A stretch of DNA of 32,000 nucleotides from Dubosiella newyorkensis (GCF_001945605.1 NZ_MPKA01000065.1:30001-62000); one strand, 5' to 3'; counted from the first letter of the stretch, positions 1 through 17,812 are shown. The notes: generated by a model from the letters alone, not told the origin. Made by a program: numbers and translations.

Positions 1-3000
1 TTCCTTTTGGATACGTGAATGTGGTTGGATCGTTCCAAGATCCGCCATTCAGATCATAGGTGATCGTGAACGTTGGCTCTTTTTCAGGATCGACTTTCTT
101 CCACAACGCATAGAATGTTAGATCTTTAGCTTCCATCGTGACCGGCTCCTTCACTCGAAGCGATTCGAGCTCTTCGTTTTGATCCAAACCAAAAGCTTGT
201 TCATGTTTCGATAAGCTCCAGCCAGCGAAGACTTCGTTTTCATTTCTTGTCAAATCATCCGAATTTGGAACTGTGATTTTTGTTCCTTTCTTCACGTTTG
301 TTTGTGTCTTTTGATCGCCTCCTTTTCCACCATTGAGATCGTAGTATACCGAATATGTATCGAACACATCCGCGATCCCGTTTCGATCTAAATCGTAGCC
401 CCATACCGCGTACACTATTTGATCTTGGTCTATGAGCTCGACTTCTTTGATCAAGTGGTTTTCCGGATCCTCATCTTCACGCGAATAGATTGGCAGCGCT
501 TTTTCGCTCCATCCGATCCATACAACACACTTACCGTCATTCACGCTCATTGTCGGTTTCTTTTGAGAGAGCGTGATCGTATCTCCTGGCAAATGGAAGC
601 TTCTTGACGGCATGCCGTGAGCTTTTCCGATTGAGTTCGTATTGGCGTTATAGATCAGCTGGACCATTTCCTTAAAATCGGCGACGCCATTTTGGTTCGC
701 GTCTTGCGCCCATAAGGCATAAAGCGTCACGTTGTTGGCCGGCATCGTTAAATCCTTATCGGAAAATTTCAACTTCTCATACAATTTGCCATCCACCGCC
801 TCTTCATGCTGCTGCAAGCTCCAGCCCACGAATACTTCATCCTCGCTTCGAACAAAGGCTTGTTGATCAAAGATCGAAACTTGTTCTCCTTTTTTGATCG
901 GATCGACATGGGTAGGCAGCTCGCCTCGACCACCATTCAAATGATAGCTTAATGTGTATGTTTCCAAGACATCGGCGATTCCGTTTTGGTCGGTATCATA
1001 ACCCCAAACCGCATATACCGTCAGATCGTGGTTTTCGAGTTTGACTTCTTGAACCAACAAAGAAGTTGGATCTTCGTCTTTTCTTTCCAGGATCGGCAGC
1101 GCTTCTTGGCTCCAGCCAATAAACTTGACTTGAATTCCATCAACCGCTTCATGGACCGGTTCTCCTTCTAGAACAATCGTAGCGCCGGGCAGACACTGTT
1201 TTCGACTTTCTGGTAAATTTTTGACCAGCCCTTCTTTGGCATTGGCATCATAGTTCAGGCGGACAAATTCTTGATGATCGGCGACGCCGTTTTCATTACG
1301 GTCGCTTGCCCAAACGGCATAGACATCATTGACATCTTCCAATACGATCTCGCTATCCAGCAATTCCTGACTGATCTTGGCATGATCTTCCAGTGTTTCG
1401 ATGTCATTTTGCGGCGTCTTACTCCAGCCGACAAAGAGTGCTTTTTCTTTTTTGAAACTGTGGTTCTTGATCGTAGCGTCTTCTTTCGTTCGACCATACA
1501 AGTGTTGGGCGCTCGAAGAAAGAACCGCCTTGGTCTGAACGATATGGTGGTGTGGACAAATCACGACTTGTTCCTCATCTCCTGTATTCGAATGATAGGA
1601 AATATGGACTGCCTTTTCGGCATAATCCGGAATTCCGTTATGATCCAGGTCTTCTGCCCATAACGCATATACGATCACATCGTTGGAAGGCATCATGTAC
1701 TCGTCGTTTGTCACGATCGTTTTCAATATTTCGATGTCTGGATCGACATTCACGATCAAATCGATCTTTTCTGTGCTCCATCCTGCGAAGATCGCGTCGC
1801 CTTTTTTCAGTCCTTGCGGATGTTCGAGGATGATCTTCGATCCCGCTTTGACGGTTTGCGGTGAAGGAACCGTTCCCTCTTTGCCATTGAGATCATAAGA
1901 CAGAGTGTAGTCTTTTAAGAGATCGGCTTTGCCATTTCCATCTCGATCATATCCCCATAAAGCGTAGACGTGGATATCTTGACTTTCGAATGTGATCATC
2001 TGGATCGTCGAAGGCATCGGATCTTCTCGTTCAAAAATGTGATCGATCTTCTGCTGCGACCAACCAATAAACTTCACAGGAACACCATTGACATCGCTAT
2101 GTTCTGGCGACTTCGCTACGAGAGTCACCCGGTCGTTTAGAATATGATTCTTGCTTGATGTCGGTAGACTTGTGACTGTACCTTCGTTTTGGGCGTTGCC
2201 TTCATAAAAGAGCGTGAAGCGTTTTTCCATATAATCGGCGATGCCATTGTGGTTGTGGTCTTTGGCCCATACGGCGTAAAGGATTTGATCATCCGGACCA
2301 ACAACCCAAGCCGAACCTGGCTTTTTGATCAAATCGAGTTGCGATTTGGTCGCGTCGGCTTCGATCGCATTTTTCTCTTGAGTTTCGCTCCAGCCAACAA
2401 ATACTTCATCTTCGTTTCTTGTTAGCAAGGATTCGGATGCGAGCTGGATCGCCGCTCCTTTCTTTAAGCCTGTCAAGGATTCAGGTCGTTTTCCCTTTCC
2501 TTGGTTCAAATCGTATGCAAGCGAATATGTCTCAAGCACATCGGCAATACCGTCCCGGTTGGAATCATAGCCCCACGCGGCGTAGACGGTTGCATCTTTG
2601 TCTTGCAAGGTGAGTGTATGGATTGTAGTAGGCGCTTTTTCCTCTCGCTTGAAAATATGATCTTCTTTTTGGGATGTCCAGCCAATAAAGACGATTGCGC
2701 TTTCGTTTTCGTCACGGTGCGCCATCTTTCCTTCTTCGATGAGTGGCACATTGGCTTGCGGGAAGTAGTTTTTCGTATCGACTGGCATCGAATTGTCCTT
2801 GCCGCCATTCGCGTTATAGGTTAGGTGGATCCACTCCTCATAATCTGGGATGTTGTTTTGGTTCGTGTCGATCGCCCAAACCGCATAGACATCGCTTCCG
2901 TTTGTCGTTTTCGCTTTTGTGGATAAAACGACTTGATCAAGAAGATGTAAAGATTGTTGTTTTTCTTTCGAATCGACAAGATCGATTCGTTGAGAACTCC

Positions 3001-6000
3001 AGCCAATAAAGACCGCGTTCTCTTTTTGGAACGTATAGTTTTTGAGGTGCTCATCCTTTTCGGTCGATCCATAGAGCGCGTTGGCGTTTTGCGCGAGTTC
3101 GGCATTCATACCATTGAGATGATGGTGCGGACAAATTACGACAAGTTCAGGCTCGCCTTCTTCCACATTGTTGGCGTGATAATATATGTGGGCTGCGTTT
3201 TGCGCGAAATCAGGTGTTCCATCATGGTCTTCGTCTTTCGCCCACACTGCATAATAGGTGACATCGTGATAAGGCATGATCGGCGTATCATCAGTCACAA
3301 GTTTTTTGAGGATCTCGATATTGCTGTCGACTTTCAAAATCGTATCGAGTTTTTCCAAGCTCCAGCCCGCAAAGACGAGATCGTCTTTTTTGAACGTTTT
3401 TTGCGGATGAAGGATCGTATACGATTCGTTAGCTCGATATTTCTTTGTTGCAAGATCAAGGCCATGGCCGCCATTAGCGTCGTATTGAACTTGATAGGTG
3501 TCGAGAATGTCGGCTCTTCCATCGTGATTGGAGTCATAGCCCCAGGCTGCATAAAGAGTTTCATCGTGATCGCTCAAGCTGATTTGATCGATCAAGTCAG
3601 GGAGCGGATCTTCTCGTTTATAGATCGTATCGGTCAACTCTTTACTCCATCCTAGGCAAACGATCGATTTTCCATCGACAGCGCTATGGGTAGGCAGTTT
3701 CTTTTCGAGCGTTACCGTTTCGCCAACGATATGGTTTGTTGAATCGGAAGGCACGTTATTGAGCACTCCTTGGTTTTGGGCGTTGCCTTCATAGTGGATG
3801 GTCAATGATTTTTCGTAAAAATCGGCGATGCCATTTCCATTGTTGTCTTGCGCCCATACCGCATAAAGCGTGATATCTTTAACAGGCATGACATAGAGTG
3901 AATTTGGAGCGAGGACCTCGGCTGATTTTTTCAAAGGATCTTTGTGTTTTTGCAGGCTCCATCCAACAAATACTTCTTTTGGATTTCGTGTGTAATCGTT
4001 CTTGGAAGAGATCGTAATGTTGGATGCTTTCGCGATATTGTTTTGTGGCTTAGGAACAATTCCCTTTCCTCCGTTGAGATCATAGGTCAAGGTGTATGTG
4101 TCGAATACGTCGGCGGTTCCATCGTTGTTGGTATCCGTTCCCCATAGGGCGTAGACTGTCTCATCTTTTTTGCCGAAGGTAAGCTCTTCGAGCGTTTGTG
4201 GCAAGGTGTCCGTTCGTTTTACGATCGAAGGATTTTGTTTCTTCGTCCATCCGATAAAGACGACTGGCGTGTCGTCGATATTTTGACAGGTTGGTTTTCC
4301 TGTCAATTGGATCGTATCTCCTGGAAGATGGATGTCTGTATCGTTTGGCATATTTTGGACATCGCTTTCTTTTGCGTTGGCTTCATAGGTCACTTTGACG
4401 TGTTCTAAGAAATCGGCTGTTCCATTGTGGTTGATGTCTTTTGCCCAAAGCGCGTAAATGTCGTTTCCTTCTTTTTGGATCGTGATCGATGATACGATTG
4501 AATATTTTTTGATCTCTTCTTCGGACGATTGGATCGATGATTCTGGTTTTATCGTTGTCCAGCCCATAAAGACAGCGTCTTCCATCGTGAACGAATGATT
4601 CTTATTCGTGTCGCTTTGGTTGAGCTTGCCATAAAGGTTCATCGCATCCGCAACGAGTTCGGCTTTTGTTCCTTCTAAGTGATGATGGGCGCACTCGAGC
4701 GTATCGCTTGTTCCATTGTTTGCATGATAGCGGACATGGTGAGCGTTTTGCCCGTAATCTGGGATCGAATCGCCATTTTGATCTTCGGCCCATACCGCGT
4801 AAAGAGTTACATTACGAGATGGCATGCTCATCGTATAGTTTGTCATGATCTGCTTAACGAGCGTTGGATCGGCTTGGGCTGAAAACGTTTGGTTGATTGG
4901 TGTTTCGCTCCAGCCGGCAAAGATGGCACCATCTTTTTTTAGCTCATTGACTTGTTGAACAATGTGTACGATATCCCCTTCATGATGCGATGAGGAGGCT
5001 GGCGCATTGCCGATTGCCCCATTTGGCGAGTAGGAAACGAGATAGAGCGCTTCATAATCGGCGACGCCATCTCCGTTTGAGTCGGTTACCCATACAGCGT
5101 AGACGTTGTTTTGGCTTCGTTTCATTTCGAGGCTCTCTACGAATTTGACCGTTTCGAGCTGCCCTTTTGTTCGGATATCTTCATGCTTTTCTAAACTCCA
5201 GCCTACAAAGAGGGCGTTTGATTTTGTAAATCCATCAGGGGCAGTTCTGAATAGTGTCGCTTCCGTTCCCACGACGTGATGGTGTGAGCAAGTGAACGTT
5301 TGATCCGTTCCATTGTTGGCGTGATAGCGGACATGAACGGCTTGATCGGCGTAGTCTGGTTTTCCATTATGATTGGAATCGATTGCCCAGACGGCATAGA
5401 AAGTTACATCGTGTGATGGCATTGTGTAGTCATCGGCGGCAATGATCGAATTGATATCGTCTGGACTAGCGTCTTCATCAAGTACTTTGTTGATCTTTTT
5501 TGTGCTCCATCCGACAAAGAGGCAATTTTGCCGAACTAGATTGGTATGATTGTGCAGAGTAAAGCTTTCTTGAGCGCGATGCGACGATGGTTGAGGAATC
5601 GTTCCTGTTCCGCCATTTGGATCGTAAGAAACGATATATGATGTATCGATGTCGGCGATACCGTCTTTGTTGGAGTCATAACCCCAGGCCGCGTAGACGG
5701 TAAGATCTTTTCCGCCAAAGCGGATCGTGTTGATCAAAGTTGGTTGTGGATCGTTGGCGCGGTAAATCGAATCGCTCTTCTTTTCGCTCCATCCAAGGAA
5801 GACGACATTGTCTATTCCATAGCTTGGTTTTTCTTGACTGAGTTCGACTTGTTCTCCAGCTACATGATTCTTGCTTGAAGCAGGCAGTCCATTGATCGTA
5901 GCGCCTGATCCATTGCCATCATAATTCAATGTCAAGGAGCGTTCTAAATAATCGGCAATGCCGTTTCTATTGATGTCTTTGGTCCATACCGCATACAATG

Positions 6001-9000
6001 TGGTGTCATGGTTAGGCATTTTATATGTTTTTGTGATGAGCGATGGGCGTTGATCTCCTGCGCTCAGTGGTTTGAGTTTTGTTTCGCTCCAGCCAGCGAA
6101 GACGAGTTGTGGATCGGTGTGTATCGGCTCTTTAGAAAGCGTGATCGTTTCTCCATAAAGATACGTGGATGAGGATGCTTTTATGCTTCCACCGTTCGCG
6201 TCGAACGTAAGTGTGTAAAGACTTTCGTCATAATCTGGAGTCCCGTTCTTGTTTTGATCGATGGCCCATACGGCATAGACGTCTTGATCGCTTGCTGGCA
6301 TCGAATCGATTTGGGTGATGATCCCAGCAGTCTCTTTTTCAGAAAAACTCGTTACTAGTTCTTGTTTTTTCTCTTTGCTCCAGCCAATCAGGACAGCTTG
6401 ATCACGAGTGAAGGTATGAGGGGCGCTCGCGTTAATGTCATCCTCGCTTCCAACAAGCTGGTCAGGTTCAAATAATGTCACAGCTTCCTTTTCAACGTGA
6501 TGATGTCCGCATCGAATGACCATGCCTTTGTCGTTGTTGGAATGGTAGAGGATTGAGTAGCCGGTTTCAGTAAAATCGGCCGATCCGTTGGAGTTTTTAT
6601 CTTCGGCCCATACGGCATAGACTTTATTCTCTCCATCTGTGATTTGAAGTTCGGTAATGATACCGGCTTTTTTCGCTTCAGCGGTCGTTTGAATGTTTTT
6701 TTGATGTTGGGTCTTGCTCCAGCCGATAAAGACGGCATGTTCTTTGGTAAAGCGCAAAGTGCCGTTGGAAGCGTTTTTCAATAGAGCGCATGTTTCTTTA
6801 GCAACATGTTGATGCGAGCAATTTACCGATTCATTGGCTTGTCCATTGTTCGCGTTGTATTGAACTTGATACTTTGTTTCGTTGTAGTCTGGCGTTCCGT
6901 TTTCATTTATATCCATTGCCCAGATGGCGTATAAAACAATGTTTTGTCTTGGCATGGAATAGTTAGAATTGGCTTGCAGGATCTGATTGATAGTTTCTTC
7001 TTTTGTTGACGCATCGAGAGCTTCTACAACCGGAGTTATTCCCCAGCCAACGAAAATCTCTTTAGATTTTCGCTTTAGATTTTTACCTTCTGCTAAATTA
7101 ACAGAAGTTCCTTTCTTCAAATTGGAAACACGTTCCGGTCTAGTGCCAGAACCGCCATTCAAGTCATATGATAAAGTGAACGTTTCGAGAACATCAGCTT
7201 TTCCGTTCGCGTCTTCGTCATAACCCCAAACGGCATAGACAATTTGATCTGCTGGTTTCTTACCATTTGTTGATTCAGGAATCGTGATTTTTTTCTCGGT
7301 CGTAGGCGTTGTATCCGCTTCTTGATAGATTTTTTCGTCCTTCTTTGTCGTCCAGCCGATGAAAACAACTTTTTTACCGTTCACATCGGAGTGGATTGGA
7401 GTTTTAGAGAAATCCAATCCAGCCACGCTTCCTGGAAGATGAAGTGATGCGTTTGGCAAACTCGAAACAATTCCACTTTGTTGAGCATTGCCGTCATACG
7501 ATACTTTGACAAGTTCAGTGTAGTCAGGAATGCCGTTTGCGTTTGTATCTTTAGCCCAGACGGCATATAACGTCACATCGGCAGCATCGATCCAGATTTT
7601 CTCACTTGTAATCAAAATACTCTTCAACTCTTCCACTTCGTTTGCGGAGAAGATTTTATTGCTTTGCGTTCGGCTCCACCCCGCGAAAACGACTTTTTGT
7701 CCATCTAAATCGTCGCGAGTCGGTTTTAGCTCATACGACACAGAAACCTGGGTTCGTTTGGAAATATTCGTTTGAGCTTCAGGTACGGATCCTTTTCCGC
7801 CATTTACGTCATACTTCAATGTATACTTTTCTAAAACATCAGCTTTTCCATTGGCATCTTCATCATAACCCCAAGCCGCGTAAACAACGAGATCTTTGGT
7901 TCCTAGTGTCGCTGCTTTGATCAATTCAGCGGAAGGATCTGAATCCGCTCTTGAATAAATTCCCTTTTTCTCCAAGGACCAGCCAAGGAATACGACTGAT
8001 TTTCCATCAATCGAATCATAGATTGGTTTATCGCTGCTCAATTGAACTTTGGCTTCTGGGAAATGATGATCCGTATCGACAATGTTCCCTTTTCCACCAT
8101 TTAAATCATAAGTAATATGAACCCACTCTTCATAGTCTGGGGTATCGTTGTTGTTGGAATCGAGTGCCCATACAGCATAGACATCTTTTCCGTCAGCTCC
8201 CATCGTTACTTCAGTAACCGTTTTAACACTTTGAGATGTTTCATTCGTTTCTACTAGATCATGTTTAGTTTCGCTCCAGCCTAGGAAAACAACTTCATCT
8301 TTTTCTTCATTAAAATCATAACTAACTTGTTTTCCTTCCGCATTCATACCTTGTACTATTGCGGTTGGAGTTAACCTTACGTCCGGCTCATTTGGCACAT
8401 GATGGTCTAAGCACGAAATCACTTGATCTTCTTTGTCTGGTTTATTCGAATGATATTTTACGTGAACTGAATTATCGTTGTAATCGGGGCTTCCGTTCTT
8501 ATTCGCGTCTTTAGCCCAGACCGCATACAGTGTGATATCCGTTGCCGGCATAGTAAAAGAATCAAAAGAATGGATTATATCTTGAATTTCTTGACTAGTG
8601 TTTTCATTTAAAACATTTGAAATCGGTACTTCGCTCCATCCTACCAACAAGGCCTCTCCTCTTTGAAGGTTCGATCCTTGTCCTAAAGCGAACTGATCGC
8701 CTTCTAAATGTTGTTCTGTTGAAGGAACCGTTCCTCCACTCTTTCCATTTCCATCGAATTGGAGCTTATAGATTTTTTTTACTTCTGCTGTGAAAATTTG
8801 ATTCGAGTCGATCTTCATTTCTTTGACTTCAGAAGCAGTATATTTCTTTTCAGCTCCATCCTGATCCGTTCCGATCCAGTTTCCCGTAAACTTGTATCCT
8901 TCCTCTGGTAAAATGGCAGGAATTTTATTATCCTGTGAAAATTGTTCTCCATGCCAGACGTTTCGAGAAATAGATGTCGTCTCATCCGTACCAATATGCG

Positions 9001-9025
9001 CGTTTGAAGCTTTGAAAGTCACTTG
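1..9025 (-). repeat. tandem in-frame array of ~30 modules (~290-350 nt each) of Listeria-Bacteroides repeat (Flg_new / InlB B-repeat-like) type
   Basis: Each module reads (Y/F)xLxY(D/H/N)xNGGxG ... (V/I/L)F(V/I/A/L)GW(S/T) ... MPxxD(V/I)T(L/V)YA(V/L/A)W. GW codon pairs lie at approx 220, 511, 820, 1110, 1430, 1780, 2060, 2392, 2680, 3000, 3365, 3645, 3960, 4250, 4565, 4910, 5200, 5510, 5790, 6090, 6380, 6720, 7045, 7360, 7680, 7980, 8280 and 8638. The first module (approx 8780-9025) has the canonical GYKFTGNW form. The last module (TFTITYDLNGGSWNDPTTFTYPKG) is cut by the window edge. Confidence 0.85.
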
Positions 9026-12000
9026 ATGCGGTTTCTGGAAACCAATCCAAAGGTTTCGATTTGTATCGGCTTTTCCATCTTTTCCAACTTCGATTGTTGC
9101 GGTCGCGCTCTTTCCATCATCCGAGTGGAATGTTCCATATTCTGAAGAAGTTGGAAGCGAGAATTGCATAGGATCATTGTCGTTGGCATTAGGAGATCCC
9201 GGATTGATTATACGTACCGGATACTTGTCTGCTCGACGGCCCGTCAATTCAAACTTTCCATTTACGGTTGTCGTTTCATGACTTTCATGATCGCCTTGAG
9301 CGATTCCGCTTTCATGAGGCGCTTCCACCTTGACAGGAGTAGTGTAGATTTCATCTATTCCTTCGTTATAGATCCCATTGTAGTTTTTATCCAAAAAAGT
9401 CGTTCCAGCGATGATTCCTGTTTGGAATTCGATTTGAATATGAGGAAGTGGGATATGACCGCCGTTTGTTGCTTCACCAACTGAATAAGGCGCATAACCA
9501 CAAGGACCAAAATTAACGACCTTGCCAACCAACTTGTCATGGTCCACCTGTTTATAGTGAAGGAAAATCTTAATATAGGCATCTTTCGGTATAGCATTTG
9601 CCTTCTGCTCCTGAGTAGTAAGAGCGTCAAGATAATCAGGATCCACGCTAATTCGAATCATCTTCACGTCTTTCCACTCATTATCTTTGATTTCTTCGGC
9701 TGATTTATAATTATTGATGTTGTTGTAGTGGCTCGTATCGCCAATCTTAGCCTTGGAATCAACTGTCGTACTGTATTGAACACGAACTCCTTTATGAGCG
9801 TCTTCTGCAATTCTTGCCGGGCCCGTCATTTCCATATCAAAATCAAATGGATTGTCCTGAACATGACTATCCCAAAAATCTCCTTTTTTCGGAACTGGAA
9901 TAAAATAATAAAACTTTTTCGCATCTTCCTCGGAAAATCCTCTTCCTGTATTATTTCGAATCGTAAAGCGCAAATCGATGTTTTCGTCACTATCCTTTAA
10001 GAAAACTTTTTCCCCTGTATTGTCAAAATTGACATAACCACTGTCTTCATGCCCTTCGGTTCGAGCGCAATCGCAATCCTTTTCATCTGGACATAATTTC
10101 GCATCAAATCCAAATGTCAATCCTTGACGTCCGGCGACAATCGACAACTTGGTATCGGAGGAGTTGATATTAAATGTACTAAAATATTCAGCAGTATCAT
10201 TATCCCCATCCATATCAAAAGTATCTTGCTCTGTGTACAAATTGATCGTCGCACTTCGCGAATCATGATAAGACGGAACATTGGCATCTTTTACGCGAAC
10301 ACAATCCCGCATATCTAACGTCATCGCATCCGCATCTTTCGCGATTTGCATTGTAAACACCATTCGGACACGATACTGGCCTAAATCTTCTGTAAACCAA
10401 CCAATCCATCCTTTTCCCTTAGTAAAAGTAATTTTATATAGATTAAAATTTCCTTTATCTTCTGGATTCGATATTTGATAATCCACATCTCTTTGAAGAA
10501 CAGTCTCTGTGACCGTGCCCGTTTCGATTTCTTCTCCTGTAAGGAAAATCTCATCCGCAGTACTGCCGCTTTCTTGAATCAGCTGAAGATTTTCAATAGA
10601 AATCTTTTTAGGCAATCGGATATAAATGATTGGGCTTGTACTGATATTGATCGTTGTATATGGATAGCCCATCGCGCCAATTTCACAATCGAAATTGACG
10701 TTATTACCCGCTACCGTAGAAGAAGTACTTAAAACTGGTGTACTGACTCGTCTTTCATCCAAAGCATTTTTAATTCCCAACGGAATTCCTTCTCCTTTAT
10801 TTTGAACATCGTTTTGATCGTTTTTAAAATTATCATAAATAACAATGGATGATGTAGCCTCATTGGTCGTATTTCCATCAAACTCCGCTTTATCTTCCTG
10901 ATTGTCTGTCTTTGCCATTTTCAAAGTAGCAAACTCAACATTATCGCCCTCAGAAACATTTAATAGCTTTCCAAATGTCATGGCAAAGCCCGCAGGATCC
11001 AATGGTCTTCCGTTCACGTAGCTTCGATAATCGGTATCATAACTGCCTACATCTGCTATGATATTTGTAAAGTATTCTCCCTCTTCTAAACCAGCTGCTT
11101 TTGCATTGAACAATACGTATCCATTTTCGCTTCTCAACGATGAAATATCTCTTTCTTCTGAATGTTTTGTTGTTGTATATTTTATGTTCACTGTGTTTCC
11201 AATTGTGGCAGGAATACGTTGCGCTACTACACCAATTTTATCGGTATTATTATACGTAAACGTTAACGTCATTGGACTGCTCGCCTGGGTTCCTTTGTTT
11301 ACAACTTGAAATCCACCTAAGTTATAAATAATATTTGAATCAACTTGATTTCCTTTATAAACACCAGGTGTAATATTATTAGCTCCCACATACATTTTTG
11401 CTCCAGTGTTAGCCGTAAAACTTTTCGCTTTAAACTCCCAGTTCGCGATTTGTTTATTACTGTCCGTATCGCTTTGTTGATCCCAATGTTCGACAGTCCC
11501 GACAATCGTAGGTTTCCCTCTTACTATTTCACTCTCTTTTGTATGAAAAGAATCATATACGTTTTCGGTGTTGCCTCGGTCTTCACCCCAATGTATCGTC
11601 GTTCCGGCAGTTGGAGCTTCAGTTTCCCAGAAAAAATATGGTGTAAAAAATTCATCCGATGGAATATAGATATTTTCCCAGGTCAAAGTCACTACCCCTT
11701 TGCCACTCTGATCTTTAGGTTTACTTACAACCGGCTGTTTAGGATCGTACAAACCCAACTGACTTTGGTTACTTGGATTGCTCACACTATATTCGGTTCT
11801 TTTATAAGAAGCGTAGACCCTTTTCCCATCACTTTTTTCGAAATATGGCAAAGAAATATCGAACGTCAATTTTTTAAAAAACATTCCTAAAGAATAGTTT
11901 TCTTTATCTGACCGAAACCAAATTTTTCGAAGTTTAAATTCCTCGTTCAAAGCCGTCGTAAATTGTGTTTTGTCATCTTTCGTGGAAATCATCGGACCGG

Positions 12001-13393
12001 TTTTTAAAGTTCCTGTGTTTGCGGTATTTCCACTTGTAGCATCCAAAACAACTTTCCCCGTAATGATCGGTGTACTTTCAATCTTGTCATATTGATCATC
12101 CGTTTCAACTCTTTCCATATTTTCATTAAGAGTATACGTTTTAATTTGAAGCTTGTTGTTTAAACTTGTATCGATCTTTTTATTCCATAAAGTGGTGTCT
12201 GGAGCCAAAATAATATTAAAGCTCGTGATCTGCGCGGTATGATGAAGTGAATAAACGATCGTGCCCGATCGTGGATGGTAATCTCCATATTTTCCATCGT
12301 TTTGACTTTTTAATCCCGACAAGGAGGCAGGTTCTACCCCTTCCACCTGTCCTTCCGAAGAGTTTGGAGTTGGATATTCTTTCACCACTAGGCCATCAGG
12401 AACGACGATTTCCACTTTTTTGTTTTGCAAATTTAATTCACTTTCCACCTCGATGTGCAAAGTGACTTGCTTGGTATAGTCAATCTTGAAACTGTGATTG
12501 CCGTTATCGTCATTAGTCAAAAGATCTTGTTTGACGTCATTCGCAATACCACCTCTAATTTCCGCCGTTTTGATTGCCATTTTTTTAGAGGTTGCTTCCA
12601 GTACAGAAGTCGAATCTTCATTCCCTTCCGCTAGCGTATTTTGCTTTTCTTTTTTTGATAAATCATTTTCAGTGGTTTCACCTTGATTATTCTCATCGGC
12701 AATAGCGCTACCCTCTTGCTGAGATTCATTTTCCAAGCCTTCTTTTTCTTGCTGTTCCTCTTCCTCCTGCCAGGCTTTCGCTTCCATGAAATCCTGGTAG
12801 GCGTTTGTCACCACGGTATAAAGCTTGGACAATGTTTGCTCGTCGGCTTGTCCGCTCTCCTCGATTTGCCCATCAAGCGCGTTCAGATGGCTGATTATGG
12901 CCTCTTCCTGTTTGAGCACGGCTTCCATAAAACCGTATTCGTCTTCTTCTAGCTGCGTGAGTTCATCCTCGTTCAAGGCGACGTAGGTGTCGTATGCGTG
13001 TTCTATACGCGTATAGACGGCTTGCAGTGGATCATCTTCCGCGCTTTCCTCTTTGAGGATGGCGATGATGTCTGCGATGTTCCTTTGCAAACATGTTATA
13101 CAGCGGTACTGGCACGGGTTCGTGCCGCACTGATCGTTATGTTCCGGATGATGCGCACAAAGGCCTTCCGTATTTTCTCCTTCGCTCCATTCCTTTTGTT
13201 CGATTGGTTCCTCTACAGACTGTTCTTCCACGATAACAGGCTCTTCTTCGCCTTCCTGCGCCCAAACGGGTATATGAATCGTGTTGGTAACGCTCAAAAG
13301 TGCGCAAAGTGATGTGGCAAGGAGTTTTCTTCCCATCGCTATGATCACTTTCCGCTCGTCAGTTCTTTGAAGCTTTTTCTTCTTCATCTTCAT
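1..13393 (-). CDS. giant secreted / cell-surface repeat protein, N-terminal part only (>=4,464 aa; C-terminus lies left of the window)
   Basis: Hand translation of the minus strand, line by line, from ATG 13393 (second ATG at 13387; SD AAAGGAG = plus 13397-13403) down to base 2 met no stop codon. Frame check: the start codon and the Trp codons of the recurring GW motif (first bases 8638, 5200, 2392, 511, 220) are all = 1 mod 3. Every minus-strand ORF the track lists inside 1-13400 starts at a coordinate = 0 or 2 mod 3. The ORF leaves the window, so no stop codon or C-terminal anchor is visible; this is presumably why the track omits it. Confidence 0.9.
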   Translation of the reverse strand, partial: MKMKKKKLQRTDERKVIIAMGRKLLATSLCALLSVTNTIHIPVWAQEGEEEPVIVEEQSVEEPIEQKEWSEGENTEGLCAHHPEHNDQCGTNPCQYRCITCLQRNIADIIAILKEESAEDDPLQAVYTRIEHAYDTYVALNEDELTQLEEDEYGFMEAVLKQEEAIISHLNALDGQIEESGQADEQTLSKLYTVVTNAYQDFMEAKAWQEEEEQQEKEGLENESQQEGSAIADENNQGETTENDLSKKEKQNTLAEGNEDSTSVLEATSKKMAIKTAEIRGGIANDVKQDLLTNDDNGNHSFKIDYTKQVTLHIEVESELNLQNKKVEIVVPDGLVVKEYPTPNSSEGQVEGVEPASLSGLKSQNDGKYGDYHPRSGTIVYSLHHTAQITSFNIILAPDTTLWNKKIDTSLNNKLQIKTYTLNENMERVETDDQYDKIESTPIITGKVVLDATSGNTANTGTLKTGPMISTKDDKTQFTTALNEEFKLRKIWFRSDKENYSLGMFFKKLTFDISLPYFEKSDGKRVYASYKRTEYSVSNPSNQSQLGLYDPKQPVVSKPKDQSGKGVVTLTWENIYIPSDEFFTPYFFWETEAPTAGTTIHWGEDRGNTENVYDSFHTKESEIVRGKPTIVGTVEHWDQQSDTDSNKQIANWEFKAKSFTANTGAKMYVGANNITPGVYKGNQVDSNIIYNLGGFQVVNKGTQASSPMTLTFTYNNTDKIGVVAQRIPATIGNTVNIKYTTTKHSEERDISSLRSENGYVLFNAKAAGLEEGEYFTNIIADVGSYDTDYRSYVNGRPLDPAGFAMTFGKLLNVSEGDNVEFATLKMAKTDNQEDKAEFDGNTTNEATSSIVIYDNFKNDQNDVQNKGEGIPLGIKNALDERRVSTPVLSTSSTVAGNNVNFDCEIGAMGYPYTTINISTSPIIYIRLPKKISIENLQLIQESGSTADEIFLTGEEIETGTVTETVLQRDVDYQISNPEDKGNFNLYKITFTKGKGWIGWFTEDLGQYRVRMVFTMQIAKDADAMTLDMRDCVRVKDANVPSYHDSRSATINLYTEQDTFDMDGDNDTAEYFSTFNINSSDTKLSIVAGRQGLTFGFDAKLCPDEKDCDCARTEGHEDSGYVNFDNTGEKVFLKDSDENIDLRFTIRNNTGRGFSEEDAKKFYYFIPVPKKGDFWDSHVQDNPFDFDMEMTGPARIAEDAHKGVRVQYSTTVDSKAKIGDTSHYNNINNYKSAEEIKDNEWKDVKMIRISVDPDYLDALTTQEQKANAIPKDAYIKIFLHYKQVDHDKLVGKVVNFGPCGYAPYSVGEATNGGHIPLPHIQIEFQTGIIAGTTFLDKNYNGIYNEGIDEIYTTPVKVEAPHESGIAQGDHESHETTTVNGKFELTGRRADKYPVRIINPGSPNANDNDPMQFSLPTSSEYGTFHSDDGKSATATIEVGKDGKADTNRNLWIGFQKPHQVTFKASNAHIGTDETTSISRNVWHGEQFSQDNKIPAILPEEGYKFTGNWIGTDQDGAEKKYTASEVKEMKIDSNQIFTAEVKKIYKLQFDGNGKSGGTVPSTEQHLEGDQFALGQGSNLQRGEALLVGWSEVPISNVLNENTSQEIQDIIHSFDSFTMPATDITLYAVWAKDANKNGSPDYNDNSVHVKYHSNKPDKEDQVISCLDHHVPNEPDVRLTPTAIVQGMNAEGKQVSYDFNEEKDEVVFLGWSETKHDLVETNETSQSVKTVTEVTMGADGKDVYAVWALDSNNNDTPDYEEWVHITYDLNGGKGNIVDTDHHFPEAKVQLSSDKPIYDSIDGKSVVFLGWSLEKKGIYSRADSDPSAELIKAATLGTKDLVVYAAWGYDEDANGKADVLEKYTLKYDVNGGKGSVPEAQTNISKRTQVSVSYELKPTRDDLDGQKVVFAGWSRTQSNKIFSANEVEELKSILITSEKIWIDAADVTLYAVWAKDTNANGIPDYTELVKVSYDGNAQQSGIVSSLPNASLHLPGSVAGLDFSKTPIHSDVNGKKVVFIGWTTKKDEKIYQEADTTPTTEKKITIPESTNGKKPADQIVYAVWGYDEDANGKADVLETFTLSYDLNGGSGTRPERVSNLKKGTSVNLAEGKNLKRKSKEIFVGWGITPVVEALDASTKEETINQILQANSNYSMPRQNIVLYAIWAMDINENGTPDYNETKYQVQYNANNGQANESVNCSHQHVAKETCALLKNASNGTLRFTKEHAVFIGWSKTQHQKNIQTTAEAKKAGIITELQITDGENKVYAVWAEDKNSNGSADFTETGYSILYHSNNDKGMVIRCGHHHVEKEAVTLFEPDQLVGSEDDINASAPHTFTRDQAVLIGWSKEKKQELVTSFSEKETAGIITQIDSMPASDQDVYAVWAIDQNKNGTPDYDESLYTLTFDANGGSIKASSSTYLYGETITLSKEPIHTDPQLVFAGWSETKLKPLSAGDQRPSLITKTYKMPNHDTTLYAVWTKDINRNGIADYLERSLTLNYDGNGSGATINGLPASSKNHVAGEQVELSQEKPSYGIDNVVFLGWSEKKSDSIYRANDPQPTLINTIRFGGKDLTVYAAWGYDSNKDGIADIDTSYIVSYDPNGGTGTIPQPSSHRAQESFTLHNHTNLVRQNCLFVGWSTKKINKVLDEDASPDDINSIIAADDYTMPSHDVTFYAVWAIDSNHNGKPDYADQAVHVRYHANNGTDQTFTCSHHHVVGTEATLFRTAPDGFTKSNALFVGWSLEKHEDIRTKGQLETVKFVESLEMKRSQNNVYAVWVTDSNGDGVADYEALYLVSYSPNGAIGNAPASSSHHEGDIVHIVQQVNELKKDGAIFAGWSETPINQTFSAQADPTLVKQIMTNYTMSMPSRNVTLYAVWAEDQNGDSIPDYGQNAHHVRYHANNGTSDTLECAHHHLEGTKAELVADAMNLYGKLNQSDTNKNHSFTMEDAVFMGWTTIKPESSIQSSEEEIKKYSIVSSITIQKEGNDIYALWAKDINHNGTADFLEHVKVTYEANAKESDVQNMPNDTDIHLPGDTIQLTGKPTCQNIDDTPVVFIGWTKKQNPSIVKRTDTLPQTLEELTFGKKDETVYALWGTDTNNDGTADVFDTYTLTYDLNGGKGIVPKPQNNIAKASNITISSKNDYTRNPKEVFVGWSLQKHKDPLKKSAEVLAPNSLYVMPVKDITLYAVWAQDNNGNGIADFYEKSLTIHYEGNAQNQGVLNNVPSDSTNHIVGETVTLEKKLPTHSAVDGKSIVCLGWSKELTDTIYKREDPLPDLIDQISLSDHDETLYAAWGYDSNHDGRADILDTYQVQYDANGGHGLDLATKKYRANESYTILHPQKTFKKDDLVFAGWSLEKLDTILKVDSNIEILKKLVTDDTPIMPYHDVTYYAVWAKDEDHDGTPDFAQNAAHIYYHANNVEEGEPELVVICPHHHLNGMNAELAQNANALYGSTEKDEHLKNYTFQKENAVFIGWSSQRIDLVDSKEKQQSLHLLDQVVLSTKAKTTNGSDVYAVWAIDTNQNNIPDYEEWIHLTYNANGGKDNSMPVDTKNYFPQANVPLIEEGKMAHRDENESAIVFIGWTSQKEDHIFKREEKAPTTIHTLTLQDKDATVYAAWGYDSNRDGIADVLETYSLAYDLNQGKGKRPESLTGLKKGAAIQLASESLLTRNEDEVFVGWSETQEKNAIEADATKSQLDLIKKPGSAWVVGPDDQILYAVWAKDHNHNGIADYMEKRFTLFYEGNAQNEGTVTSLPTSSKNHILNDRVTLVAKSPEHSDVNGVPVKFIGWSQQKIDHIFEREDPMPSTIQMITFESQDIHVYALWGYDRDGNGKADLLKDYTLSYDLNGKEGTVPSPQTVKAGSKIILEHPQGLKKGDAIFAGWSTEKIDLIVNVDPDIEILKTIVTNDEYMMPSNDVIVYALWAEDLDHNGIPDYAEKAVHISYHSNTGDEEQVVICPHHHIVQTKAVLSSSAQHLYGRTKEDATIKNHSFKKEKALFVGWSKTPQNDIETLEDHAKISQELLDSEIVLEDVNDVYAVWASDRNENGVADHQEFVRLNYDANAKEGLVKNLPESRKQCLPGATIVLEGEPVHEAVDGIQVKFIGWSQEALPILERKDEDPTSLLVQEVKLENHDLTVYAVWGYDTDQNGIADVLETYTLSYHLNGGRGELPTHVDPIKKGEQVSIFDQQAFVRSEDEVFVGWSLQQHEEAVDGKLYEKLKFSDKDLTMPANNVTLYALWAQDANQNGVADFKEMVQLIYNANTNSIGKAHGMPSRSFHLPGDTITLSQKKPTMSVNDGKCVVWIGWSEKALPIYSREDEDPENHLIKEVELIDQDQIVYAVWGYDLDRNGIADVFDTYSVYYDLNGGKGGDQKTQTNVKKGTKITVPNSDDLTRNENEVFAGWSLSKHEQAFGLDQNEELESLRVKEPVTMEAKDLTFYALWKKVDPEKEPTFTITYDLNGGSWNDPTTFTYPKG
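9040..9420 (-). other. SdrD-B / Cna-B-like (prealbumin-fold) domain inside the giant protein
   Basis: GIIAGTTFLDKNYNGIYNEGIDE...HETTTVNGKFELTGRRADKYPVRIINPG...NRNLWIGF resembles the GxIxGxx(W/F)xDxNxNG ... TTxxxGx(Y/F)x(F/L) ... YxV pattern of SdrD B-like repeats. Recognition is by eye only. Confidence 0.5.
13259..13393 (-). other. predicted Sec signal peptide of the giant protein (aa 1-45)
   Basis: Basic n-region MKMKKKKLQRTDERKVIIAMGRK, hydrophobic core LLATSLCALLSV, c-region ending VWA followed by QEGEEE. Starting at Met20 (ATG 13336) would give a more canonical length but has a weaker SD. Confidence 0.6.
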
Positions 13394-13454
13394 AATCTCC
13401 TTTCAACCTATCCATGACTTATCTGAAAATACTTTCTTAAATTCCTTTTTTAAA

Positions 13455-13577: not shown

Positions 13578-15974
13578 TTATTTCGCGACAATATTGACAA
13601 CTTTGCCTTTGACCACGATGATCTTCTTGATCTCTTTGCCCTCGATATGGCGTTTGACCGAATCCAGTCCCAGAGCCTGCTCCTTCAAGCTCTCGTCATC
13701 CGAGCCTTGCTTCGTTTCGAATTTGCCACGCACTTTGCCGTTGACCTGCACGACGATCGTCACATTCTCTTCTTTAAGAGCGTTTTCATCATACGTAGGC
13801 CAAGGCTCATACGCGATCGATTCCTTCGAATCCGTTAAATACTGCCACAACTCTTCGCCAAGATGGGGAGCGAACGCCGAAAACATCTTCACGAACCCTT
13901 CCGCATATGGACGATACAGCTTCTTGCTTTTGTAAGCTTCATTCACGAAAATCATCATCTGCGAAATCGCCGTATTGAAGTTGAGTGTATCGATATCATG
14001 CGAAACCTTCTTCACCGTCTGGTTATAGACTTTATCCAAGCTATGATCGTTGACGTCACTGATTTCAACAGCTCCATGGATCAAACGATCCACCCGGTCC
14101 AGCCATTTTCTCGTTCCGTCCAGACCCGTCGTCGACCAAGGAAGACCCGCTTCCAAAGGACCCATGAACATCTCGTAAACGCGCAAAGCATCCGCCCCAT
14201 GACTTTCCACGATCTCATCCGGATTGACGACATTGCCTCTCGACTTCGACATCTTCTCGCCATTGCTTCCAAGGATCATCCCTTGATGGAACAGTTTTTG
14301 GAAAGGTTCTGGTGTAGGAAGGATTCCTTGATCATATAACACTTTATGCCAGAAACGGCTATACAACAAATGTAAGACCGCATGCTCCGCGCCACCTACA
14401 TACAAATCGACCGGCAGCCAATGTTTCAATAGCTCAGGATCCCCGATCGCCTTGTCGTTATGCGGATCGATATAACGCAAATAATACCAGCAGCTGCCAG
14501 CCCATTGCGGCATCGTATTCGTCTCGCGTACGCCCTTCACACCATCGATCTCCACATGTAAGAAGTCCGGACAATTGGCCAAAGGCGATTCTCCCGTGTC
14601 CGCTGGCTTGAAGTTTTCCGTGGCAGGAAGCTCCAAAGGAAGTTCTTCAACATCGACCGTGCGCATCGTACCATCCTCCATATGGATGATCGGGATCGGC
14701 TCGCCCCAATAGCGCTGTCTAGAAAAGAGCCAGTCTCTTAACTTATATGTCGTCTTTGCTTCGCCAACACCCTTCTCTTCTAGCCACTCGATCATTTTAT
14801 CGATCGCCTCTTGCTTGCCAAGACCATTCAGCCATTCCGAATTGATATGGACACCATCTTCTGTGAACGCTTCCTTTTCGATATCGCCACCCTCCAAAAC
14901 AGGAATGATCGGAAGCCCAAACTCTTTCGCGAACTCATAATCCCGCGTATCGTGAGCAGGAACCGCCATGATCGCACCCGTACCATAGCTTGCAAGAACG
15001 TAATCCGAAATATAGATCGGGATCTTCTTGCCATTGACAGGATTGATCGCATAAGCGCCCGTGAATACACCCGTCTTGTCTTTGTTCAGATCCGTACGCT
15101 CCAGATCCGACTTGCTTTGGCACTCCTTTTGATACGCCTCGACTGCCTCTTTTTGCTTAGGCGTCGTGATATCGCTCACAAAAGGATGTTCCGGAGCCAT
15201 GACACAATACGTCGCTCCAAACAATGTGTCGCAACGCGTCGTGAACACGGTAAACTCTTTATCGTGTCCATCGATCTTGAAGACGACATTCGCGCCCTTC
15301 GATTTACCGATCCAGTTTCGCTGCATTTCCTTTGTCGACTCAGGCCAGTCCACGAGCTCAAGATCATTCAAAAGCTGTTCGGCATAATCCGTGATCTTCA
15401 AGACCCATTGACGCATCGGCTTGCGAATGACAGGATAGCCGCCGCGCTCGCTCTTTCCATCAATGACCTCTTCGTTGGCGAGGACCGCCTTCAATTCAGG
15501 ACACCAATTGACCGGGATCTCATCCACATAGGCAAGCCCCGCATTGTACAATTGAATGAAGATCCACTGCGTCCATTTATAATAGCTCGGATCGCTTGTC
15601 GCGATTTCCCGATCCCAATCGTAGCTGAACCCTAATGATTTGATCTGATCGCGAAAATGATCGATATTCTGCTGGGTGAAGATCGAAGGATGATGACCCG
15701 TCTGGATCGCGAACTGCTCAGCTGGAAGACCAAACGAATCAAACCCCATCGGATGCAGAACGTTGAAACCTTCCATTCTCTTTTTTCGCGCGATAATATC
15801 TGTCGCCGTATAGCCTTCCGGATGCCCTACATGTAATCCATTTCCGCTCGGATATGGAAACATATCCAACACATAATACTTTGGTTTGGAAAAATCCGCC
15901 GTATCGGTCTTGAACGTTTTATTGTCTTCCCAAACTTTTTGCCACTTCTTCTCAATAGTCTTGTGATCGTACAT
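13578..15974 (-). CDS. leuS: leucine--tRNA ligase
   Basis: Track ORF 13578..16076. It contains the class I synthetase HIGH ([14 protein letters not shown]) and KMSKS (EKMSKSRGN) motifs and overall LeuS-like sequence. I place the start at [15 protein letters not shown] (ATG 15974, SD AGAGGT 7 nt upstream). The 34-codon upstream extension runs through the T-box terminator. Confidence 0.97.
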
Positions 15975-16005
15975 CGTATCTACCTCTATTCTCTCTAAAT
16001 AAAAT

Positions 16006-16214
16006 AAAAAAAACGCCCTTAACGATAAGGACGTTTGCACGCGGTACCACCTTACTTCTTGCCAAAAGGCAAGCACTCATTCCCTTTAACGCAAGGATCA
16101 CGGTTTCCATTACGAAACAGCTCCCCGACGAGTTCAAAGCCTTCCAACAAGGATTTTCACCAACCATCCTCTCTCTAGCGAATTCCAGCCTCTACTGCTT
16201 CGGTTCTATACCTG
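16006..16214 (-). promoter_or_regulatory. T-box riboswitch leader (Leu specifier) with intrinsic terminator
   Basis: Minus strand shows AGUAGA and AGAGAG elements, a GGUGAAAAUCC distal-loop-like element, and a specifier context GAA-CUC-G (CUC at 16132-16130, a Leu codon). The conserved T-box sequence AAGGUGGUACCGCG lies at 16053-16040. It is followed by a 10-bp terminator hairpin AACGUCCUUA/UAAGGGCGUU plus a U run (16036-16006). Confidence 0.85.
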
Positions 16215-16220
16215 TCTCAA

Positions 16221-16249
16221 AATGTAACAAATTTTCAAACATCCGTCAA
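16221..16249 (-). promoter_or_regulatory. sigma-A-type promoter of the leuS T-box leader
   Basis: On the minus strand: TTGACG (16249-16244), a 17-nt spacer, then TACATT (16226-16221). Confidence 0.55.
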
Positions 16250-17801: not shown

Positions 17802-17812
17802 ATCCATTCCCT

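Follow-up and report, generated by a model that had tools for sequence, protein, structure and literature searches.

The window, meaning the whole 32,000-nucleotide stretch of DNA analysed here, comes from a gut bacterium of the Erysipelotrichaceae and begins inside a giant surface-protein gene on the minus strand. Its open reading frame spans positions 2..13402, with the likely ATG at 13393-13391, and encodes a product of more than 4467 aa; the gene runs past the window start, and the C-terminal ~100 aa of the protein are probably missing from the window (the orthologue P0007 continues ~100 aa beyond this point and ends in a transmembrane segment and a basic tail). A signal peptide is followed by an N-terminal Cys/His cluster, an unannotated head of ~1500 aa and then Flg_new/B-repeat modules. 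The whole protein matches Pfam Flg_new at 6.7e-59 (196.3 bits, cut-off 27, 8 stretches) and Flg_new_2 at 1.6e-11 (44.5 bits). The gene neighbours are leuS, the comG operon, patatin and tyrS, and neither in the window nor at the D. muris-like orthologue locus does a metal-uptake or metal-homeostasis gene adjoin the giant gene. The features are as follows.

2..13393, minus strand: giant surface-protein gene (open frame, Pfam matches, orthologue collinearity)
13088..13165, minus strand: N-terminal Cys/His cluster GLCAHHPEHNDQCGTNPCQYRCITCL, aa 80-105 (related clusters in homologues)
8168..8515, minus strand: class-C module 1, aa 1630-1745, pentad CLDHH at 8399-8413 (Asp variant at +2)
6608..6919, minus strand: class-C module, aa 2162-2265, pentad CSHQH at 6806-6820
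6266..6607, minus strand: class-C module, aa 2266-2379, pentad CGHHH at 6497-6511
5090..5386, minus strand: class-C module, aa 2673-2771, pentad CSHHH at 5276-5290 (the shortest, without the hairpin insertion)
4445..4789, minus strand: class-C module, aa 2872-2986, pentad CAHHH at 4679-4693 (in AlphaFold2 model 2)
2876..3241, minus strand: class-C module, aa 3388-3509, pentad CPHHH at 3119-3133
1310..1657, minus strand: class-C module, aa 3916-4031, pentad CPHHH at 1544-1558 (in AlphaFold2 model 1)

Seven class-C modules and their orthologues

The repeat region holds 27 complete YAVW-delimited modules, earlier divergent ones and a truncated last one, in agreement with the ~30 counted in the sequence-only reading. 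That reading had also placed a His/Cys motif at seven positions, and all seven proved exact, in frame and on the minus strand within one open reading frame. In the modules concerned, here called class C, the opening Y[HYN][ASG]N[NG] stands in place of YDxNGG, and all seven pentads share one column of the module alignment. Cys is otherwise rare, as had been claimed: the 4467-aa product contains 25 (0.56%), and 7 of the 13 in the repeat region are the motif Cys. HHH runs occur five times in this product, always inside the pentads (5/5). The module at aa 2162-2265 has a second Cys at +10 (ETCAL; the motif Cys is position 0), which is kept in orthologues. An insertion of 15-40 residues after beta2 is frequent in class C and is predicted to form a beta-hairpin in the model of module 22. 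Where the protein is well ordered, class C recurs about once per super-repeat of five ~100-residue modules (~520 aa), arranged C-B-A-B-A.

The protein is highly repetitive, which would favour regarding the motif as a chance product or as an artefact of recently copied modules. In the repeat region, however, C.[HD].H was observed seven times against 0.047 expected (maximum 2 in 20,000 shuffles), class-C modules are only 26-38% identical to the first class-C module, and synonymous codons differ among the seven motifs (TGC/TGT, CAT/CAC). The low identity and varied codons indicate that the motif is kept at the protein level and is no by-product of recent DNA duplication. Together with the conservation in orthologues and in two phyla described below, these results refute an origin by chance or duplication, to which we assign a vanishingly small probability.

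Positional orthologues with 41-54% overall identity were found in a Dubosiella muris-like bacterium (P0003/L004), in Erysipelotrichaceae OPF54 (L005) and in P0007. P0003 is complete (3535 aa), collinear at 41% identity and flanked by the same comG-leuS synteny. Conservation of the motif in orthologues had been set beforehand as a test, and it was borne out: the triad of Cys, His/Asp(+2) and His(+4) is kept in 16/16 alignable orthologous module pairs, while the His at +3 and those in beta1 vary. The Asp variant CLDHH (aa 1630-1745) corresponds to CPHHH in P0003, and the counterparts of the module with the second Cys (aa 2162-2265) read CTHHH..ETCAL in P0003 and CAHGH..EKCTL in L005. Orthologue pentads are CGHHH for aa 2266-2379, CPHHH and CKHHH for aa 2673-2771, CPHHH and CAHNH for aa 2872-2986, CPHHH and CAHHH for aa 3388-3509 (a module also present in metagenome fragment P0013 at 99% identity), and CPHHH, in P0007, for aa 3916-4031.

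Conservation of the C-x-[H/D]-x-H triad

The survey took in 150 representative proteins and 67 loci, which together gave 1100 distinct modules. Cys occupies position 0 in 98/1100, and 92 carry the full C-x-[HD]-x-H, with Cys in 100%, His (86%) or Asp (14%) at +2, and His at +4 in 100%. These 92 modules come from 62 proteins or loci in two phyla, the carriers being Erysipelotrichaceae, Lachnospiraceae, Christensenella, Oscillospiraceae, Monoglobus and Coriobacteriia. We concluded that the seven modules are a genuine subclass maintained by selection, shared by orthologues and present in two phyla. No description of the class-C motif was found in Pfam, NCBIfam, PDB sequences or the searchable literature, which agrees with the earlier remark that it is undescribed for Listeria-Bacteroides repeats. 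The signature ...Y[HYN]xN(4-25 residues)[FYVI]xC-x-[HD]-x-H[VIL]xG... can serve to annotate this module, which current Pfam/NCBIfam models miss.

The three positions vary together. C(0) pairs with H(+4) in 93/96 modules and D(0) with Y(+4) in 168/231 (statistics that take no account of phylogeny), and the commonest (0,+2,+4) triples are C-H-H (79 modules), D-N-Y (74) and C-D-H (13). Tyr at +4 accompanies Cys in 1/96 modules, and degenerate class-C-like modules drop all three triad residues at once (SPERY, DLAKY). Other module classes carry a polar set at the same positions, most often Asp/Asn/Tyr; since these classes have Asp at 0 and a polar residue at +2, the site is peripheral and not deep in the core. 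His/Asp exchange and near-exclusion of Tyr are typical of metal-ligand positions, and the substitution pattern at 0/+2/+4 is compatible with ligand behaviour. No conserved fourth ligand was detected by covariation, which leaves three conserved candidate ligands within five contiguous residues; about 5% of triad modules have a further Cys at +10.

Predicted structure and readings of the site

Two AlphaFold2 models (pLDDT 87.6 and 90.2) gave the same local structure in two different modules. In both, beta1 and beta2a pair in the register column 18-Cys and Tyr(column 20)-hydrophobic(-2); three irregular residues follow the Cys, and His(+4) then forms an isolated bridge that matches an isolated bridge at column 16. 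Cys and the last His thus flank a three-residue bulge in strand beta2. From DSSP strings and the strand alternation rule, rather than from measured distances, we infer that Cys and His(+4) would share a face with the invariant core Tyr at an effective i/i+2 spacing, that the beta1 His (columns 17 and 21) would lie on the opposite face, and that the three triad side chains may converge. The H-x-H strand ligands of carbonic anhydrase and Cu,Zn-SOD have a similar one-face spacing. In Foldseek the three-module model matched 2y5p chains with TM(target) 0.68-0.71, rmsd 3.6-4.2 A and probability 0.97-0.99, and the single class-C module model had 2y5p as its top but weak match (E 0.9, TMt 0.55), the weakness probably being explained by the insertions. 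Against Pfam PF09479, module 10 alone scored 17.6 bits (E 0.004, cut-off 27) and module 22 gave no match; class C was assigned to the Flg_new family because it aligns clearly with the neighbouring classes. The class-C modules are modelled with the B-repeat fold (beta-grasp, as in PDB 2Y5P).

The sequence-only reading had treated the whole His/Cys cluster, a constellation of one Cys with three to five His, as a conserved unit. Its core C-x-[H/D]-x-H stood, and the remainder did not: the middle His (+3) is present in 75% of triad modules and is otherwise replaced by Y, N, Q, G, S, R, I, F or P, and the beta1 His of vHvxYH occur in 67% (column 17) and 60% (column 21). These frequencies bear on one large site, in which the beta1 His and the whole C-x-H-H-H would supply 5-6 ligands to a metal-scavenging patch. 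The beta1 columns are enriched in triad modules and are among the columns most informative for Cys, and the +3 His is frequent, as such a patch would have it. The beta1 His, however, become Q, S, Y, N or E in many triad modules, including a deep 'VEYYANGG...FYxCxHHH' branch, they differ between orthologues, their mutual covariation is weak, and in both models they would face away from Cys(0) and His(+4). We consider a single large site very improbable; at most, the beta1 His, possibly joined by His(+3), would make up an exposed patch of their own in particular lineages.

Our best reading, which we hold tentatively as a real possibility, is that the class-C triad is a candidate transition-metal site. 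In this mechanism Cys would end beta2a, three residues would bulge and His(+4) would rejoin the sheet about one strand-step away, at the N-terminal pole of the module and underneath the aromatic residue in the DxNxNGxPDY linker that leads into it. Cys, His/Asp(+2) and His(+4) would converge on one ion, most likely Zn2+ (Cu+ and Ni2+ are also possible), and the fourth coordination position would be taken by water, by a side chain close by or by a partner molecule. With the class-C array placed along a rod-like adhesin stalk, the ion could make the junction of linker and module stiffer, or could provide periodic sites of metal-dependent contact or sequestration along the fibre. Structural Zn sites usually have four protein ligands, and no known metal-binding domain matched the class-C module in fold or sequence.

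The same residues could instead form a structural or pH-sensing clamp that holds no metal, in which Cys/His/His replaces Asp/Asn/Tyr and keeps the beta2 bulge against the linker aromatic residue, possibly titrating near gut pH and altering stalk stiffness. The coupled D-N-Y set of the other classes points this way, as do the association of His/Tyr(+4) with an aromatic linker residue even in modules that lack Cys, the same isolated-bridge geometry around a lone His(+4) in class-B modules, the confident modelling of the bulge with no ion present, and the failure to find a fourth ligand or adjoining metal genes. A clamp would nevertheless leave unexplained why Cys never becomes Ser, Thr, Ala or Asp while both His are kept (92/98) and why Tyr, common at +4 elsewhere, is nearly excluded there with Cys; the His/Asp alternation at +2 is also more typical of ligands. 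We regard the clamp as rather unlikely.

Cys-His-Asp/His is also the catalytic-triad composition of cysteine hydrolases and transferases, an observation counted against the metal reading. The triad could accordingly be a reactive nucleophile, a thiolate-imidazolium pair placed at periodic points of the fibre for thiol-disulfide exchange with Cys-rich host mucins, autocatalytic cross-linking or thioester-like covalent adhesion. Besides its composition, the predicted spacing of Cys and His(+4) would suit a dyad, each module has a single free Cys in strictly anaerobic gut bacteria, and the carriers are adhesin-like, are anchored by sortase, SLH or TM, and have heads of the BspA-LRR or SdrD-like kind. 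Catalytic triads, however, are seldom contiguous in sequence as this one is; class C does not resemble the thioester, isopeptide or ester-bond domains, and its invariant columns hold no Gln, Lys or Thr partner; and in the AlphaFold2 register the Cys would point to the core side below the linker, where its accessibility is doubtful. A nucleophile seems to us quite unlikely.

Comparison with known systems

The modules of this protein share family, fold and the hallmarks Y-x-N-G, F-x-G-W-S and L-Y-A-V-W with the Listeria-Bacteroides/InlB B-repeat (PF09479, PF18998; 2Y5P), to which class C adds the C-x-[HD]-x-H bulge. The best Foldseek match to the three-module model was the SHIRT repeats of S. 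gordonii SGO_0707 (PDB 7AVH; E 1.5e-4), which likewise string beta-rich domains head to tail into an extended stalk; with a TM-score of 0.18-0.33, 11% identity and no reported Cys/His motif, the likeness is architectural only. Classical zinc fingers, knuckles and ribbons, with four Cys/His arranged as two pairs, were rejected, class C having only three contiguous ligand-type residues. TED, isopeptide and ester-bond domains, which would show a conserved Cys-Gln, Lys-Asn/Asp or Thr-Gln pair, were rejected: class C has no Gln, Lys or Thr partner in its invariant or near-invariant columns, Pfam gave no match, and Foldseek returned B-repeat and SHIRT only. Peptide deformylase, LuxS, PGRP-type amidases, type-1 copper proteins and the high-affinity Ni site of NikR contain His2Cys/His3Cys centres, in which one Cys and two or three His usually leave an open or exogenous fourth position. 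They share the ligand set with class C but draw it from distant segments of unrelated folds, and no indication of catalysis or electron transfer was found in class C.

The streptococcal polyhistidine triad proteins PhtA/B/D/E and HtpA are also Gram-positive surface proteins with several short His-rich motifs on small beta units. In PhtD, HxxHxH and a Glu form a tetrahedral Zn2+ site, a precedent for repeated Zn sites in such proteins (PMC3842936). Pht proteins offer the best functional parallel to metal sites repeated on a surface, with metal binding by class C as a candidate property, although the Pht motif has no Cys, there is no homology, and linkage to the Zn transporter AdcAII (adcAII) is seen for pht genes whereas the giant gene has no adjoining transporter. 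Membership in the Pht/Htp family was rejected, as the motif differs and searches of Pfam, NCBIfam and PDB sequences gave no Pht-related match.

The 'zinc zipper' of the Aap/SasG G5-E repeats joins two chains in trans through Zn2+ sites whose coordination is incomplete. Like class C, these repeats stand in tandem in the stalk of a giant Gram-positive surface protein, but the fold is different, a Pfam search gave no G5 match, and the Aap/SasG ligands are His/Asp without Cys. Purely hypothetically, a three-ligand class-C site could work in trans in a similar way. Class C might then be an unrecognised metal-binding repeat with a three-ligand Cys-His-His site and an open position every ~520 residues, where a second fibre, another cell or a host glycoprotein would complete the coordination of Zn2+ or of thiophilic Cu+/Ni2+ in trans; we rate this extended proposal as doubtful. 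If true, aggregation or adhesion would be gated by metal, or the surface would act as a large metal buffer. On the same view, the module appears to have passed horizontally between Bacillota and Coriobacteriia.

Few surface proteins of gut commensals (Dubosiella, Allobaculum, Lachnospiraceae and Coriobacteriia among them) are as large or as poorly understood as the giant Flg_new-repeat proteins, whose stalk repeats are usually regarded as inert spacers. The stalk described here is patterned, with modules of at least three classes, and is no uniform rod. Should the triad bind metal or be a reactive thiol, the fibres would carry periodic chemically active sites, which would matter for how zinc or copper is handled in the gut lumen, for aggregation that depends on metal or redox state, and for mucus adhesion.

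The N-terminal cluster searched against Pfam and NCBIfam gave no match. It contains a CAHH string at aa 82-85, as the sequence-only reading had noticed, and a related cluster follows the signal peptide in several homologues (P0003, P0010, P0080, P0014, P0143, P0137). In some homologues the N-terminal element reads C-x-H-x-H-x3-C and so contains the same C-x-H-x-H; the cluster and this related element were counted toward the metal reading.

The giant gene, its modules and the Cys/His motif

The Cys/His motif is carried by a giant gene, and translation of the gene likely starts at the ATG at 13393-13391, which is followed by a basic-hydrophobic signal peptide. The features used here are as follows.

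2-13402, minus strand: open frame of the giant surface protein, 4467 codons, continuing past the window start
101-8515, minus strand: stretch in which the module classes form a higher-order super-repeat
1622-1657, minus strand: example of an inter-module linker, aa 3916-3927, AEDLDHNGIPDY

The head region of approximately 1500 residues (1497 aa in the NCBIfam search) gave no significant family match in Pfam or NCBIfam. From about aa 1560 onward, modules of ∼100 residues follow one another, each closing with (L/V)YA(V/A/L)W, and Pfam matched the whole protein to the Listeria-Bacteroides/InlB B-repeat family (Flg_new, 6.7e-59 over 8 stretches; Flg_new_2, 1.6e-11). Linkers of the form D-x-[ND]-x-[ND]-G-x-[PA]-D-[YFVIL] lie between all modules; their final residue is aliphatic if a class A module follows and aromatic if the next module is of class B or C (the classes are defined below). 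The linker pattern is akin to DxDxDG-type Ca2+-binding loops, and because of this resemblance the stalk may be calcium-rigidified through its linkers.

Alignment of all 27 complete modules defined three main classes, and two more modules belong to a fourth type.

Class A: GYD..G.AD[VIL] linker, YDLNGG opening, KKG
Class B: A.D.N.NG.ADY linker, ...NH[IV].GE or [LIF]HLPG
Class C: the His/Cys class

The better-ordered parts of the protein follow a C-B-A-B-A super-repeat of ∼520 residues per unit. The C-B-A triplet matches segments of many other species' proteins at ∼40% identity; hence the module order did not arise by accident in this protein but is old. The homologue P0003, which matches a Dubosiella muris locus, is complete (3535 aa); it aligns collinearly with the window protein (41% identity), and the two loci share the comG operon - leuS - giant gene order, for which reasons we regard P0003 as a positional orthologue. 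The window protein is >900 aa longer, so whole super-repeats have been gained or lost.

The seven Cys/His pentads picked out by the sequence-only reading, each containing the triad Cys(0)-x-His/Asp(+2)-x-His(+4), proved exact in residues and coordinates on translation. Every one of the protein's five HHH runs falls inside them, as do 7 of the 13 repeat-region Cys, and C.[HD].H occurs seven times in the repeat region against an expectation of 0.047 (20,000 shuffles of that region). The class C modules share only 26-38% identity with the first of the seven, and the synonymous codons used for the pentad Cys and His differ among them, so the motif is maintained at the protein level. Low module identity, differing codons and the shuffle expectation together rule out a duplication artefact. 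A heme or Fe-S site was ruled out by the lack of CxxCH and the single Cys, and an intramodule disulfide by the presence of one Cys per module in six of the seven.

Conserved core of class C and its coupled positions

A class C HMM collected 1160 module instances, 1100 of them distinct, from all proteins and loci obtained. Among the distinct modules, Cys occupies the motif column in 98, and the full C-x-[H/D]-x-H is present in 92 of these, derived from 62 different proteins or loci. In the 92 triad modules Cys(0) and His(+4) are each found at 100%, with His (86%) or Asp (14%) at +2. At +3, the middle residue of HHH, His is found in 75%, and the others have Y, N, Q, G, S, R, I, F or P. Of the vHvxYH histidines of beta1, that of alignment column 17 is present in 67% and that of column 21 in 60%; a deep branch, VEYYANGG...F[YF]xCxHHH, has Q, S, Y, N or E in their place. 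Class C-like modules that lack the Cys also lack both His (SPERY, DLAKY). Thus, of the composite motif first described, C-x-H-H-H plus vHvxYH, the Cys and the +4 His stand as invariant and +2 as His/Asp, but the middle His and the beta1 histidines do not belong to the invariant core. Loss of the motif in orthologues had been named as a possible refutation; in our alignments the triad is retained in every alignable module, and +3 (Q/H/G, H/N) and the beta1 His vary.

The sequence-only reading had also not recognised the motif from described Listeria-Bacteroides repeats. NCBIfam gave no match for any module class, and the class C profile found only chance-level matches in PDB sequences (E >= 0.02). 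The searchable literature on the Flg_new/B-repeat family and on CxHxH-type motifs held no description of a Cys/His variant, and the source databases gave no names for the homologues. A class C module alone scores under the Pfam threshold, and its family membership is taken from the whole-protein Pfam score and the fold. Judged by these comparisons, class C is an undescribed variant within the Flg_new/B-repeat family, with a clean, widely conserved and easily testable signature.

Coupling among positions 0, +2 and +4 was counted in 827 gap-free distinct modules. His is found at +4 in 93/96 modules with Cys at 0, and Tyr at +4 in 168/231 modules with Asp at 0 (Fisher p ∼ 4e-58 for each, uncorrected for phylogeny). 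The most frequent triples are C-H-H (79), D-N-Y (74), D-K-Y (24), D-T-Y (19) and C-D-H (13). Tyr is the commonest +4 residue elsewhere, yet it is almost absent when Cys is present. From these coupled triples, class C looks like a soft-ligand counterpart of a polar clamp that other classes hold at the same place.

Outside class C, modules of related proteins carry Asp(0)-x-Asn(+2)-x-Tyr(+4) (74) or Asp-x-Asp-x-His (11) at the same bulge. Two class B examples are found in the window protein.

4142-4444, minus strand: class B module with DTDIH
7871-8167, minus strand: class B module with DTDHH

Such residue sets suggest a conserved polar clamp or, possibly, a hard-metal site, neither of them described for B-repeats.

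Predicted position and possible role of the triad

Two AlphaFold2 models were built, one of the class C module at window 1310-1657 (module 22, pentad CPHHH; 29 class C rows, pLDDT 87.6, pTM 0.80) and one of the C-B-A triplet at aa 2864-3197 (13 rows, pLDDT 90.2, pTM 0.68). In Foldseek searches the triplet matched the InlB B-repeat 2y5p (TM(target) 0.68-0.71, probability 0.97-0.99) and the SHIRT tandem stalk domains 7avh (E 1.5e-4); for the single class C module 2y5p was the top match, a weak one. DSSP assigned both class C modules alike: beta1 (columns 18-21) has as its partner a short beta2a, whose end is the Cys or lies just ahead of it, residues +1 to +3 follow without regular structure, and His(+4) forms an isolated bridge whose partner is an isolated bridge at beta1 column 16. 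Both models, and the conservation pattern in which the invariant Tyr of column 20 faces the always-hydrophobic position -2, would fit a register that pairs Cys with column 18 and His(+4) with column 16. By the alternation rule, Cys and His(+4) would share a face with this core Tyr, about one strand-step apart, and would sit at the N-terminal pole of the module under the short helix that AlphaFold2 places at the final D-Y/F of the linker (PDY). Consistent with this placement, modules whose linker residue is aromatic tend to carry an aromatic +4 (H or Y). The spot is probably peripheral and not deep core, since other classes carry Asp at 0 and polar residues at +2. The class B module of the triplet model has the same isolated-bridge pair (V139, H162), so the bulge appears to be a shared scaffold, to which class C would add the Cys and the His/Asp(+2). 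The beta1 histidines are predicted to point to the opposite, solvent-facing side of the sheet. Given this position and their incomplete conservation, the single large constellation that the sequence-only reading had drawn from the beta1 histidines and the pentad together is unlikely.

Our best reading of the triad, held tentatively and at somewhat under even confidence, is a candidate three-ligand transition-metal site formed by Cys, His/Asp and His. Four observations argue for such a site: the triad is conserved all-or-none, +2 alternates between His and Asp, modules with the Cys exclude Tyr from +4, and Cys and His(+4) have a predicted i/i+2-like placement. We also count in its favor that repeated Zn sites have a precedent among Gram-positive surface proteins: the Zn2+ site of PhtD, made up of HxxHxH and a Glu, is tetrahedral (PMC3842936). 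Class C may work like the Pht histidine triads or the zinc-dependent repeats of Aap/SasG, but belongs to neither family. Several searches speak against a metal site. Covariation analysis for a fourth conserved ligand or for coupling among the secondary histidines gave weak, phylogeny-confounded signals only and yielded no such ligand; neither the PDB sequence search nor Foldseek with both models found similarity to a known metal domain; and no metal-transport genes were found in the neighborhoods of the window and of the D. muris-like locus. With these results in view, a non-metal structural clamp, possibly pH-titratable, has to be weighed; we consider it less likely, the exclusion of Tyr and the His/Asp exchange being counted for the metal site. 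A second live alternative, less probable still, is a reactive Cys-His(-His/Asp) nucleophile whose chemistry with molecules of the host or of a partner would be covalent or redox.

A conserved Cys/His cluster near the N-terminus of the window protein was likewise counted for the metal-site reading.

13088-13165, minus strand: N-terminal Cys/His cluster GLCAHHPEHNDQCGTNPCQYRCITCL, aa 80-105, just past the signal peptide

The cluster is retained in homologues (P0003, GLCVHHPWHDAQCG..CQYRCVPC; P0080, GLCEHHPAHTEECGY; P0010, FCKHHPEHTEECGF), and a related form, C-x-H-x-H-x3-C-[GY], is found in others (twice, as CTHVHDETCG, in P0014 and once in P0143). Pfam and NCBIfam gave no family for these clusters. 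The cluster resembles a small metal-binding knuckle, so far not described, on surface proteins of gut Firmicutes.

The module at 6608-6919 has a second Cys (Cys 2205, window 6788-6790, ETCAL) 10 residues past the triad Cys. Three species keep it in this module (ETCAL, ETCAL, EKCTL), the one in which +3 departs from His (Q, H, G). Cys 2205 could be a fourth ligand or a partner peculiar to this module.

Distribution of class C and neighboring genes

An exhaustive search of 1.84 billion representative proteins with a profile of the seven class C modules found 316 proteins at E <= 1e-3; a word-indexed homologue search with the same profile found 2. Among the best 150 of the 316 matches together with P0001 and P0002, the two proteins of the word-indexed search, 22 proteins contain the motif. 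A genome scan (one genome per species, 8-row alignment as query) detected class C modules in Dubosiella muris, Erysipelotrichaceae OPF54 and Allobaculum; in Frisingicoccus caecimuris, Dorea sp. CAG:317, Christensenella, Anaerovoracaceae, Peptococcaceae, Monoglobus and Oscillospiraceae; and in the Actinomycetota Collinsella provencensis, Adlercreutzia rubneri and an Atopobiaceae MAG. All of these genomes came from gut or rumen material. The query pattern matches the window sequence itself, but the scan brought up no identical locus, and its best match reached 68% identity. The OPF54 locus (L005) is 50% and the further orthologue P0007 54% identical to the window protein; with P0003, they place the window organism among the relatives of the Erysipelotrichaceae.

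Homologue C-termini carry a PxTGD-type sorting signal followed by a TM segment and basic tail, or SLH domains, or a TM segment and basic tail, and other triad-bearing proteins contain BspA-type LRR/DUF285 or SdrD_B-like regions. By these features the homologues are adhesin-like proteins of the cell surface. A 57-residue query (end of the preceding module, linker and class C N-terminal half) was 58-60% identical to segments in C. provencensis and A. rubneri and 43% in the Atopobiaceae MAG, and the first two are as close to it as many Clostridia. This closeness of Coriobacteriia segments suggests that adhesin genes with class C modules moved horizontally among gut bacteria.

Directly upstream of the giant gene and on its strand lie leuS and a comG-like competence pilus operon, which includes small pilin-size ORFs.

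13578-16076, minus strand: leuS
13578-19712, minus strand: leuS and the comG-like operon together
17813-18874: ORF adjoining the T2SSE ATPase, no Pfam match; the orthologue has a weak T2SSF match at this position
18717-19712: T2SSE ATPase of the comG-like operon
27037-27987: phage-type integrase
29149-31710: type I restriction-modification HsdM methylase

The same leuS/comG-like order is found in the D. muris-like locus L069, with a sortase gene and a LytR-CpsA-Psr gene further upstream. The stretch from integrase to HsdM (27037-31710) has a GC content of 31-36%, compared with ∼44% elsewhere, and is probably a mobile or shufflon-like restriction-modification island.
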